In this document: in pieces, positions 44,676 through 51,993 of the stretch
How the letters are laid out: every line of letters begins with the position of its first letter
Position numbering within the stretch: position 1 is the first letter of the stretch
From: TPA_inf: Saccharomyces
Taxonomy: Eukaryota
Assembly (NCBI GenBank): GCA_000146045.2
Contig: BK006945.2
Location: 64,001 to 128,000, forward strand
Length of the DNA stretch: 64,000 bases
Direction: 5' to 3'
Position numbers and translations under genes: made by a program
Notes under the pieces: generated by a model
Database searches by the model: none
Told to the model about the DNA's origin: nothing
What the model saw: only the letters and a program-made list of their open reading frames with translations

Positions 44676-44972
44676 CTATTTATTATCGGTGGCGTCTTTT
44701 ATGGTTTTACCGTTGTTGCCTGGAGCATCCTCAGGAAGACCTAAATGTGACCATTCATCGTAGTCCATCAATTGGTGGTCCATCCTGCACCGCAGGTAGT
44801 CCTTTGCCAGTAGTCTACAATTCATTGCATTTTCGTTCTGCACAAGCTGCATACATTTGAGATACTCTTGCATGTACTTGGTGCATTCGCCGTCGTGGTC
44901 TAGCGGGAACGAACCTCTCTCGGGTGGAGTAGGTCTCAATGCGCTCAGCGAGCTTCCTGGGTTCCCTGACAT
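44676..44972 (-). CDS. COX19: Twin Cx9C (CHCH) mitochondrial intermembrane-space copper chaperone for cytochrome oxidase assembly, 98 aa
   Basis: The ORF is 98 aa with twin Cx9C motifs ([11 protein letters not shown]...[11 protein letters not shown]). Length matches COX19. Confidence 0.9.
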
Positions 44973-45901: not shown

Positions 45902-47575
45902 TCATGGTCTTAATCTCTTTGGATCTCTTGGGAACAATGAAGCTCTTCTGATATTTTTCAAATCCAAATAGAACATAACAACTCTTTCCAAACCGATACC
46001 ACCACCGGCGTGTGGAGGACACCCATAGCTGAAGCCGTCACAGTAGTCCTTTAGACCTGGGTCCTCAGGAGACAAACCATGGGCTTTCATCCTTTCTTGT
46101 AATAGAGCATGGTCGTGGATACGTTGTGCACCGGACAAGATTTCTTCACCCCTCATGAAGAAATCATACGAGTTAGAATACTTAGGGTTGGCTGGGTCGG
46201 GCATTGTGTAGAAGGGACGGATCTCCAAGGGGAACTTGTCTAGGATGTAAAAGTCGGTGTCGTATTTGTCGCGAACCAACTTACCCAAGAACTTTTCATT
46301 TTCGGTACTCAAGTCTTCAAAATCACCAATTTCCTTACCGGCAGCTCTTAGCATTTCAATACCTTCTTTGTATGTTAGACGAACCATCTTACCATCTTTA
46401 GGTAACTTGAATTCTTCAACAGGGTATTGCTTACGTACCAACTCAATTTCATGAGCAAATCTCTTGGGCAATTCACTGAAAATAAACACAAACAACTCAC
46501 TCAACGTGTCCAAAACTTCGTGGTAATGTTCTTCGAAAGCCATTTCCATGTCCAAACCAGTAAACTCGGTCATGTGACGGTGGGTGTTGGAGTTTTCAGC
46601 CCTGAACACAGGCCCGATTTCGTAAACTCTTTCAAAGTCGGCCACAATCAATTGTTGCTTGTTAAATTGTGGAGATTGAGCTAGGTAGGCCTTCCCTTTG
46701 AAGTATGTCACCTCAAACACACTGGAACCACCTTCACTTGGTGCACCCAACAGTTTTGGTGTGTGTACTTCGGTAAATTTCTTTGTGGCCAAATATTCTC
46801 TGAACAACTCACAAACACCAGCTTGAATCCTGAAAATAGCTTGGTTGGTGACGGTTCTCAAGTCAATGACACGGTAGTCTAATCTGGTGTCCAAGTTGAC
46901 CACGGGCAAACCTGCAGCTTCAGCTTCAGCTTCGGAACGGGAGGCATCTTCCAAAAGGATTGGCAATGCTTCTGGAGTCTCGGAAATGGTATAAATCTTG
47001 GTAATGTGAATTTCCAGGTTTTGCACAGTAGCAGACTTGATTGGCTCATCTACCTTCTTGACAATACCTCTGACAAGGACAATGGACTCCAAATTCAATG
47101 AACCAGCCCATTTGACCATGTTTTTGCTGATGGTACCTTCCTTGTTGGCCTTTACTAGACCTTGGATCAAGGAAGCTTGTTGCCTTAAAGTTAAAAAGGC
47201 CAATGTTGCACCTTGTTGTCTGGTGTTGTGGACTCTTGCCCTGAAGAGGACTTCTTTGTCGCTATCCTTAGCCTCATCCAAGTCAACAAACTTGACACGC
47301 TTCTGACCAGTTCTGTCAGAGTCACGAGACTGGATCAATGGCAACTTACCGTAGTTGTCCTTTGCGGTGTCTTCGGCAGCGGCTTTCTTTTCACGGGCTT
47401 CTCTTTCAGCTTCCAACTGGAGAGCTCTTTCCTCCTTCTTTCTCTGTTTCTCTTGCTCTTTCTGCAATTTCTTCAAGGCCTTCTTGGACAATGGCTTACC
47501 ATCTTCCCCAAGAATAACTTGAGCAGGTTCTGCGGATTCTTCAACAGCTTTGACAATATTTTCGTCTTGAGACAT
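45902..47575 (-). CDS. DPS1: Cytoplasmic aspartyl-tRNA synthetase (class IIb), 557 aa from the first ATG
   Basis: The tracked ORF starts GTG-ATG (MMSQ...). The ATG start gives 557 aa, matching DPS1. It has a Lys-rich N-terminal extension, an OB anticodon-binding domain and class II motifs (FRAE, GLERVVM). Confidence 0.93.
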
Positions 47576-48233
47576 CACGTAAAATGTTTCTTTTTTTCTT
47601 TTACAATTAACCTTAAGAGGCCGTTCCAGCCAATGATCGAAAACTTAAACAAATCGGTTGTCTTGCTTCATCCTTATATGACATTAAATAATTTTTCATT
47701 TCTTCTTTTTTCACGAAAATGCGTCATAAGGTACTCGTCACTGATGATTTCATAGACAATAAAGCAACAGCACAACGTAAAAGAGTTCTTATGGATGAGT
47801 CCCAATCCTATTGTTTTCTGTAGCCTAATGGTACAAAATGTGACGGTAATAGAATATATACTTTCATAATATCATAGGAACATCTTCAGCTTGGCCTGTC
47901 TCTTTGAGAAACAAAAACTGCATGTGCACAATTACTGCAGATGAACTTCAAGGAAACATATGTCCTGCTTGGAGGACCAGAAGCAAACCATTCTAGCTGT
48001 ATTTGCAACGCTTTTGTACCAAATGTACGTTATTATGTTATGTCGTCAGTGTAGATATATTAGATTTACATGCGGCTGTACCGCATCATTGGAAAATAAT
48101 GTCTGCAGGCTCGCAAAATTTAAGGGTTCCCTTCTACAATAGTAGTCAAAATTGCTTTTTTGCATATAACAAAGTGAAAAAAAAAAAAAATATGAGAGAC
48201 ATATCTAAAAGACATATATAATCTGCCACCAGA

Positions 48234-51200
48234 ATGAGTTGCACTGCGTCATATGCCGGCATGACAACTCCGGTGAAGGATAAGGAAGGCCACGGGATTC
48301 CATGCTTACAACCTATCGATGTAGTGGAATGTACCTATCAATATTTTACAAAATCACGGAATAAACTGTCTTTAAGGGTAGGCGATTTGATTTACGTACT
48401 CACTAAAGGTTCTAATGGCTGGTGGGATGGTGTTCTTATCAGACACAGCGCTAATAATAATAATAATTCGTTGATACTAGACAGAGGTTGGTTCCCCCCT
48501 TCTTTTTACACGGTCCATTCTAAACGAACTACACGGGGTGCCTGACATCGGTAATGAATTGGAAATATTTCAAGCGGGTCTTAATCTTAAACTGGAATTA
48601 TCAAGCAACCCAGTGATCTTATCATTGGAAGACTTTTTAGACTGCTGTCGCGATATTGAATTCAAGGAACAACTGGCTTGGTCACCTACTCCCGTCCACG
48701 AAAGGAAAGGCTGCTGTGAGCTGCTGTACTATAACCAGGATTTAGATGTTTATTGTCGCACGTTACCATATTTACCACAAAATCAAGTTGAAACCGTGAA
48801 CGACTATTCGTCTTTTCCTGCAATATCGAAGATAGCTGGTAAAAAGATGCCTATAACGTCAAGCCCCGATCTGTTCTATCTCAATGATTGTGATGTCGTC
48901 TATTGGTATGACCTCACTCGCTTAGTGTGTCATTATGTTAATTTAACAGAGCGCGACCTATTGGCAAATGAACGGGAAAAGTTTCTAACTTCCTTGGATT
49001 TATTAACAGCTCAAATAACCTATGTTTATATGCTTTTCAGGAATCTCCGTTTAGTTGAAGATAGTTTCAAAAAAACCCTCAAAAAACTAATTTACACCTT
49101 GTCTAGGTTTTCAATAAATGCAAATATTTGGTTTCATTCCACATTGTTTGAAGAAAGAGAAGCCATAGCCTCCCAGAAGGATCCAGAAAGAAGATCCCCT
49201 CTTCTACAGTCAATCCTAGGAACCTTCCAAAAATTTCATTTTCTACTGCGTTTACTACATTTCCTCTCAAATCCTAACGAACTTACAATACTGCCTCAAT
49301 TGACTCCTCGATTTTTCAAGGATTCTTTCAATACAATTTCATGGAATAACCCGTTTTTGCGTAAGCGTCTCAACCAGCATATGTCCCATGACCTACCGAG
49401 ACAGATGATTAAAGCCGTTGCTGGTGCTTCAGGAATTGTTGCGGAAAATATTGATGAAATTCCAGCTTCCAAACAGGGCACTTCATGCTCGTCAGAAACG
49501 TCTCACCATTCACCATCAGCCCCGTTTCAAAGAAGGAGAAGAGGTACCATTTTCTCTAATGTGTCAGGAAGTTCCGATGAGTCTGACACCATATGGTCCA
49601 AAAGGAAAAAACCATACCCGCTAAATGAAGAAACTCTAAGCCTTGTAAGGGCCAGGAAGAAGCAGCTTGATGGTAAACTAAAACAAATGATCAAAAGTGC
49701 TAATGAATATCTCAGTAACACGGCTAATTTTTCAAAAATGTTGAATTTTGAAATGAATTTCAAAACCTACGAAGAAGTAAGCGGAACAATTCCTATAATT
49801 GATATTCTGGAAAACCTAGATTTAACTATTTTTCTAAACTTGAGAGAGTTGGGAGATGAGAATAGAGTTTTTGACGAAGATGTCGCTATTGATGATGAAG
49901 ATGAAGAGTTTTTGAAACATTCTTTATCATCCCTATCGTATATCTTATCCGACTATTTTAATATGAAGCAATATTTTCATGATGTAGTAGTGAAATTTAT
50001 AATTGTCGCCCAGCATTTGACATTAGAGGATCCTTTCGTTTTCTCGCCAATGCAAAACGACTTGCCTACCGGTTATTATGAACCAATGAAACCTTCATCC
50101 TTGAATTTAGATAATGCCAAGGATAAGAAGAATGGGAGCCAAAATACTGATATCCAAGAGGAGGAAGATGAATATGAGCCAGACCCGGATAGTCTTATTC
50201 TCTTCCACAACCTCATCAATCAAGATTCTGATTTCAATGATTTAAAGTTTTTTAATCTCGCCCACGTTTTTAAAAAATCCTGTGATGACTATTTTGATGT
50301 GCTTAAACTAGCCATTGAGTTCGTGAATCAATTAATTCTAGAAAGAGAGAATTTGTTAAATTATGCTGCTAGAATGATGAAAAACAATATCACGGAATTG
50401 CTATTGCGCGGGGAAGAAGGCTATGGGTCCTATGACGGCGGTGAAACTGCCGAAAAAAGTGACACGAATGCTGTTTATGCAGATTCAGATACTAAAGACA
50501 ATGACGAATGGCGTGACAGCCAAGTCAAATTACCGAGGTATTTGCAGCGCGAGTATGACAGTGAACTGATTTGGGGCTCTAACAATAGGATTAAAGGTGG
50601 TTCTAAACACGCACTGATCTCTTACTTGACAGATAATGAAAAGAAGGATCTATTTTTCGATATTACTTTTTTAATCACTTTCAGAAGCATCTTTACTACA
50701 ACGGAGTTTTTAAGCTACTTGATTTCGCAATATAATTTGGATCCACCAGAGGATTTGTGCTTTGAAGAATACAATGAATGGGTGACGAAAAAGCTTATAC
50801 CGGTTAAATGTAGGGTGGTTGAGATTATGACAACCTTTTTCAAGCAATATTGGTTCCTGGGCTATGATGAGCCCGATCTTGCGACCCTAAATCTGGATTA
50901 TTTTGCGCAAGTAGCAATCAAGGAAAATATAACAGGATCTGTGGAATTACTAAAGGAGGTCAATCAGAAGTTTAAACATGGTAATATACAAGAAGCGACT
51001 GCACCAATGAAAACGTTAGATCAACAGATCTGCCAGGACCATTACTCGGGCACTTTATACTCTACCACGGAATCCATTTTGGCCGTCGATCCAGTTTTAT
51101 TTGCCACTCAATTAACGATACTAGAGCATGAAATTTATTGTGAGATAACCATTTTTGATTGTTTACAAAAAATTTGGAAGAACAAGTATACAAAATCGTA

Positions 51201-51993
51201 TGGGGCTTCACCGGGTTTGAACGAGTTTATCAGTTTTGCCAATAAACTGACAAATTTCATATCCTACTCTGTTGTAAAGGAGGCTGATAAAAGTAAGCGC
51301 GCCAAGCTACTCTCTCATTTTATTTTTATCGCAGAATATTGTAGGAAATTCAATAACTTTTCTTCCATGACTGCAATCATTTCAGCATTATATTCTTCAC
51401 CAATTTATCGTTTAGAGAAAACCTGGCAGGCAGTTATTCCTCAAACGAGAGATCTATTGCAGTCACTGAACAAGTTGATGGATCCCAAGAAAAATTTCAT
51501 AAATTACAGAAACGAGCTGAAATCTTTACATAGCGCTCCCTGCGTACCGTTTTTCGGCGTTTATTTATCTGATCTAACCTTTACTGATTCCGGAAATCCG
51601 GATTATCTTGTCTTGGAACATGGTTTAAAGGGTGTCCATGATGAGAAGAAATATATAAACTTCAACAAAAGGAGCAGACTTGTTGATATCTTACAAGAGA
51701 TCATATATTTCAAGAAAACACATTATGATTTCACTAAAGATCGGACGGTAATTGAATGTATATCAAATTCATTGGAAAACATCCCCCATATTGAGAAACA
51801 ATACCAATTATCATTAATTATTGAACCAAAACCAAGAAAGAAAGTCGTTCCGAATTCCAATTCGAATAATAAATCACAAGAAAAATCCAGGGATGACCAA
51901 ACCGATGAAGGAAAAACATCCACTAAGAAAGACAGATTTCCAAAATTTCAATTACATAAGACAAAGAAAAAAGCTCCCAAGGTTTCTAAGTAA
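48234..51993 (+). pseudogene. SDC25: Ras guanine-nucleotide exchange factor SDC25 (CDC25 paralogue), disrupted by a +1 frameshift into a 103-aa SH3 fragment and a long CDC25-homology fragment
   Basis: ORF 48234..48545 (frame 0) encodes an SH3 domain (...[23 protein letters not shown]...) and ends at TGA 48546. An open frame-1 reading starts at 48481 and runs to 51993. Its C-terminus has RasGEF-N and RasGEF domains. Joining the two gives about 1250 aa, the intact SDC25 length known from other strains. The frame change lies within the C6/T5 homopolymer at about 48494-48507. The S288C fragments are annotated YLL017W (103 aa) and YLL016W (1048 aa from the ATG at about 48847). Confidence 0.85.

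Follow-up and report, generated by a model that had tools for sequence, protein, structure and literature searches.

A one-base insertion in a T run as the source of the split SDC25 reading frame in S288C-type Saccharomyces cerevisiae

The window (the whole stretch of 64,000 nucleotides that was analysed) contains two forward-strand reading frames that each encode part of a Ras exchange factor. Their arrangement raises the question of which base change separated them, whether that change is a property of the species or of one group of strains, and what the divided gene may still produce. The reading frames and the domains encoded in them were as follows.

48234 to 48545, forward strand: upstream remnant reading frame (YLL017W), 103 codons, consisting of 91 native SDC25 codons and 12 frameshifted codons, then TGA
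48336 to 48506, forward strand: SH3 domain coding region, residues about 35-91 by Pfam, with the lesion at its C-terminal edge (GWFPPSF)
48481 to 51993, forward strand: native SDC25 frame past the lesion, +1 to the frame of ATG 48234, closed by TAA at 51991-51993
48847 to 51993, forward strand: YLL016W as conventionally drawn, from the first in-frame ATG, 1048 codons
50590 to 50877, forward strand: RasGEF_N (REM) domain, PF00618, E=2.3e-19, residues 685-780 of the 1151-aa reading frame
51100 to 51672, forward strand: RasGEF (Cdc25-homology catalytic) domain, PF00617, E=4.3e-63, residues 855-1045 of the 1151-aa reading frame

The 103-aa upstream reading frame matched SH3_1 at residues 35-69 (E=2e-6, 27.7 bits against a cut-off of 22.9) and SH3_2 at residues 43-90 (E=7.7e-6; 43-91 in the restored protein) in Pfam. 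Since the SH3 domain lies upstream and the RasGEF_N and RasGEF domains downstream, the two reading frames are halves of one gene of the CDC25 type and not a chance pair. An N-terminal SH3 domain, followed by RasGEF_N and then RasGEF near the C-terminus, is what places the locus among the SH3-class Ras exchange factors of the CDC25/SDC25 type, whose nucleotide-exchange activity on Ras is known from the literature. The same order (SH3, long linker, RasGEF_N, RasGEF) was found in the intact 1252-aa SDC25 alleles and in CDC25. AlphaFold2, given the single sequence, produced a poor model of the 103-aa product (pLDDT 45.5), with five strands at residues 35-87.

The surroundings of the locus consist of the gene for aspartyl-tRNA synthetase (DPS1), located upstream of SDC25 on the minus strand (45902-47575), a gene for a 98-aa product (44676-44972) and an ABC transporter gene downstream of SDC25. 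The tRNA scan identified no tRNA genes in the window. This gene order, the division into a 103-aa SH3 reading frame and a RasGEF reading frame, and the description in the literature all match SDC25 of S288C (YLL016W plus YLL017W). We assign a probability of about 95% to the following reading, in which the identity of the locus and the explanation of its lesion are taken together: the feature is the SDC25 locus on chromosome XII of an S288C-type S. cerevisiae, SDC25 being a duplicate of the Ras exchange-factor gene CDC25, and a single T inserted into a T4 run splits the gene and removes the full-length protein.

The disruption itself is already documented, and the present analysis is a confirmation of a known lesion, not a discovery. 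SDC25 has been described as divided into YLL017W and YLL016W, with a premature stop both in the reference strain and in further laboratory strains (PMC7954794, 10.1101/2023.09.07.545205, PMC6396416, PMC7736884). SDC25 was described as disrupted in an S288C-type strain, where CDC25 is essential for lack of redundancy (10.1101/218305, the same study as PMC6396416), and CDC25 is dispensable in backgrounds with a functional Sdc25 (PMC6522298). Dionne et al. left the "Sdc25 (YLL017W) pseudogene" out of their SH3 survey (PMC7954794), and Du et al. treated YLL017W as a pseudogene and mentioned that YLL017W and YLL016W may be one reading frame in other strains (PMC7736884). The term "disrupted allele" was preferred to pseudogene in a "core gene set" preprint (10.1101/2023.09.07.545205). 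What is added here is the placement of the lesion at base level against 20 other alleles, and the exact base may already have been published.

The position of the frame change could be narrowed down from the window itself. In the +1 frame, the final stop before the open stretch was TAG at 48478-48480, and the program-made list of reading frames gave the downstream frame as 48538-51993 (1151 aa). Because the +1 frame is open only from 48481 and frame 0 ends at 48543-48545, the frame change is confined to 48481-48542. The sequence-only reading had described a stop in frame 0 and an open +1 frame, and every part of that description was correct on direct reading of the frames. It had placed the lesion in a C6/T5 tract. 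Three features lie within the interval or directly past its end.

48494 to 48499, forward strand: C6 run, unchanged throughout the comparison set; not the lesion
48503 to 48507, forward strand: T5 run with one extra T, the frameshift; T4 in 20/20 other sequences; about 112503-112507 in chromosome XII coordinates
48543 to 48545, forward strand: premature TGA stop, product of the frameshift, by direct reading of the frame

Other alleles were found by exact look-up of the proteins that the neighbours of SDC25 encode (DPS1 and the 98-aa product), and SDC25 was then read in the contig flanks. The comparison set comprised L001-L010 and L016-L024 (NCBI assemblies) and L025-L026 (metagenomes), L015 and L001 being one assembly. 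L001-L010 displayed 97.7-99.6% DNA identity to the window across the gene and its flanks (4.3 kb). The sequence TTCCCCCCTTCTTTTACACGG, with C6 and T4, was present in all 20 other S. cerevisiae assemblies or metagenome contigs, and the SDC25 tract read as GGTTGGTTCCCCCCTTCTTTTACACGG, again C6 plus T4, in each of the 20 sequences not of the window type. Those of the 20 that are free of other lesions have intact 1252-aa reading frames, in which the junction ends (D/E)IG. Among the sequences compared, T5 was limited to the window and L011-L014. Thus the frame is continuous over T4 in the intact alleles, whereas the window carries T5.

In the multiple alignment the extra T was the sole length difference within 48481-48545, and no sequence combined T5 with a correction of the frame elsewhere. 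Deletion of one T from the window resulted in a reading frame of 1252 codons, the same length as in the intact alleles of L002, L004, L005, L006, L009 and L010, which are flanked by the same neighbouring genes as in the window. The restored window protein differed from intact alleles at 6-29 residues. The extra T lies at codon 91/92 of the SDC25 product, immediately past the SH3 domain. A +1 length change in a mononucleotide run, from T4 to T5, is the form expected of a homopolymer slippage indel. The restored junction that had been inferred from the window alone proved identical to that of the intact 1252-aa alleles, and the extra T in the T5 run and its absence from all 20 other S. cerevisiae sequences bear out the earlier proposals of a T insertion and of strain specificity. 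The proposed C6/T5 location held for the T run and failed for the C6 run, which was invariant.

The C6 run was considered as a site of the lesion, since deletion of a C also joins the frames (GWFPLLFTRS) and retains the SH3 domain. Pfam was indifferent to the choice of run, as both the T deletion (GWFPPSFTRS) and the C deletion gave acceptable SH3 ends. The placement in the C6 run was rejected because the intact alleles are all C6/T4.

Homopolymers are error-prone, and the frame break might on that account be a sequencing or assembly error, or might lie in the C6 run, where the joined product still scores as SH3. We consider this hardly credible. L011-L014, which are assemblies of independent read sets, share the T5 sequence with the window and encode its 103-aa product, and every intact allele had C6 plus T4. 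These four come from separate public sequencing runs and match the window at 100% identity along stretches of up to 4.3 kb. A look-up of the 103-aa product found it in 77 blocks of the assembly index, these four among them. A reference error is ruled out by the independent assemblies that share T5. The insertion of a T in SDC25 accordingly has the traits of a strain-specific frameshift allele, with an intact reading frame elsewhere in the species, one reversible lesion and no sequencing artefact.

The polarity of the change, as an insertion, is based on comparison within S. cerevisiae, namely on 20/20 conspecific sequences, including the about 2% divergent L009, and on the integrity of the reading frame. 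The metagenome scan gave two S. cerevisiae contigs only, both with T4, and no other Saccharomyces species. The first 365 aa of the restored protein had zero matches in a large protein search. That search apparently misses yeast SDC25, as 1252-aa products with Pfam matches exist in the contig index.

Some full-length Sdc25 might still be made if the extra T were bypassed, either through a +1 shift of the ribosome on U-UUU-U or through slippage during transcription. In principle, the P-site tRNA-Phe on UUU 48503-48505 could re-pair one base on, after which ACA CGG TCC would be read as in the wild type. The downstream frame at the SDC25 T5 run is +1, as at Ty1, ABP140, EST3 and OAZ1, and the run would formally allow the tRNA to pair again. 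The +1 sites known from yeast depend on a pause at a slow A-site codon, and UAC is a common tyrosine codon. The 0-frame A-site codon here is UAC (UCU UUU UAC), which is not rare and does not end translation, and it would cause no pause. In contrast to programmed sites such as those four, the T5 shift site is not conserved, being absent from 20/20 other sequences, it is without a slow 0-frame A-site codon, and the genetics indicate loss of function, as redundancy with CDC25 is lost (PMC6396416, PMC6522298). Because the site is absent from other strains and no slow A-site codon is present, a +1 slip at T5 was rated as background level, and we regard production of full-length Sdc25 by such a bypass as very improbable.

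The T insertion in SDC25 acts in the following way. The run at 48503-48507 probably went from T4 to T5 through replication slippage, as a +1 change in a mononucleotide run suggests. Ribosomes starting at ATG 48234 read 91 native codons, then 12 wrong ones, and meet the stop at 48543-48545. The translated output is at most an SH3-only peptide of 103 residues, in which the SH3 domain is complete and carries a short tail. Sdc25 in its full length of 1252 residues is lost, and standard decoding cannot make it. The mRNA is an expected target of nonsense-mediated decay because the stop lies about 3.4 kb from the 3' end of the transcript, and the downstream 1048-codon fragment would probably be little translated. 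The literature attributes the essentiality of CDC25 in this background to the lost redundancy with SDC25.

Whether the allele is a complete null is a separate matter. The YLL016W reading frame from ATG 48847 begins about 205 residues into the protein, without the SH3 domain, and it retains the whole RasGEF_N and RasGEF domains. An SH3-less Sdc25, made from this ATG or from an internal transcript, might keep or change the Ras-GEF activity, possibly together with a free SH3 peptide from YLL017W. The ATG at 48847-48849 stands in the context aaaaagATGc, a good one for yeast with A at -3. The C-terminal part alone is said, going by the title of the 1989 paper of Boy-Marcotte et al., to suppress cdc25-5, which we counted in favour of a non-null allele.

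Other published data point the same way. The causal SDC25 allele in a cross of BY and 3S was that of BY, and its knockout or replacement abolished the colony trait (PMC6456305), although the knockout effect in that study could stem from neighbouring genes or from the choice of the deleted segment. A YLL016W peptide from a deep proteome was validated by synthetic peptide in strain SUB592, which may or may not carry the T5 allele (10.1101/2020.06.24.168526). YLL017W and YLL016W were both transcribed and were responsive to SWI/SNF perturbation (PMC7736884), and YLL016W was called in a direct-RNA study (PMC13637595).

Against a non-null allele, ten ATGs (48234-48746) precede 48847, including that of the 103-codon reading frame and those of short reading frames at 48554 and 48746. 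With ten upstream ATGs on an mRNA from the native promoter, leaky scanning is implausible and reinitiation inefficient. Judged from the sequence, expression of YLL016W would require reinitiation or an internal transcription start. Moreover, CDC25 is essential in this background, which indicates that whatever activity is left is no substitute for Cdc25 (PMC6396416, PMC6522298). On balance, a partly active product appears possible and rather unlikely. The same tentative standing applies to a hypomorphic or neomorphic reading of the T5 allele, in which YLL016W and perhaps the YLL017W SH3 peptide are made and alter Ras signalling in laboratory strains. If true, this reading would explain why the BY allele had an effect and its knockout a phenotype (PMC6456305), and would likewise explain the peptide reported in 10.1101/2020.06.24.168526. 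The sequence-only reading had called SDC25 inactivated, a term that stands for the full-length protein and for the full-length protein only. The ATG at about 48847, from which it had suggested that the fragment could still be expressed, exists as described; expression from it is possible and not easy, with ten ATGs ahead of it.

Comparison among strains indicated that the T insertion broke a working gene. Pairwise pN/pS among SDC25 alleles was 0.11-0.31, in the N-terminal part and the GEF domains alike, which indicates that purifying selection acts on SDC25 in S. cerevisiae and that the gene was no old wreck when the T was inserted. Between 48100 and 50829, three changes were private to the window relative to 21 other sequences, namely the T insertion, a longer poly-A run and the synonymous site 50724. 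So small a number of private changes fits a recent mutation of a haplotype that is ordinary in other respects. L304 and E557 had seemed private to the window among the first ten alleles, but at least one of the 21 sequences shares them.

The poly-A run (48177-48190) lies 44 bp 5' of the SDC25 ATG, in the promoter or 5' leader, and was A14 in the window and A10-A12 in the 21 other sequences, where it was often interrupted by G. An upstream reading frame of 9 codons begins at 48192, ahead of the SDC25 ATG.

Three other strain groups carry different, independent mutations that disrupt SDC25. A 19-bp deletion (49982-50000) was detected in L001 (GCA_000975675.2) and L007 (GCA_029991315.1), which come from different projects; it changes the reading frame, and SDC25 ends there at 588/589 aa. 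L008 (GCA_000977505.2) has an extra A after 48339 (48339/48340; AA to AAA) that cuts the SDC25 reading frame to 43 aa. In L022 (GCA_029989385.1), TGG is changed to the nonsense codon TGA at SDC25 codon 454 (49594-49596). These disruptive alleles are no measure of frequency, as the look-up displays places with differing neighbour proteins and thereby enriches such variants.

Further variation in the length of the product was observed. The SDC25 gene call of L016 (GCA_029990905.1) was 986 aa, with a stop outside the DNA stretch compared. In L003 (GCA_029990645.1), the stop was lost by a change of TAA to CAA at 51991-51993, extending SDC25 to 1265 aa. The AAT (Asn) repeat in the SH3 region (48452-48466) had one more unit in L007, an in-frame length polymorphism.

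Repeated independent loss of SDC25 despite constraint is worth a population-level count. For work on S288C/BY strains, the lesion removes the backup of CDC25, and its consequences are practical, not conceptual. As this backup is lost, results on essentiality, paralog redundancy and Ras/cAMP signalling from S288C/BY do not transfer to strains with an intact SDC25. A 2025 preprint analyzed SDC25/CDC25 as a paralog pair by deletions and degron tags in BY4741, and its main text uses "pseudogene" in one general sentence only (PMC12632388). The frameshift may have been overlooked there when it was concluded that Sdc25 matters less than Cdc25. Studies in BY4741 that pair SDC25 with CDC25 as paralogs should allow for the lesion and, with the exact base known, a one-nucleotide repair from T5 to T4 is available in the reference background.
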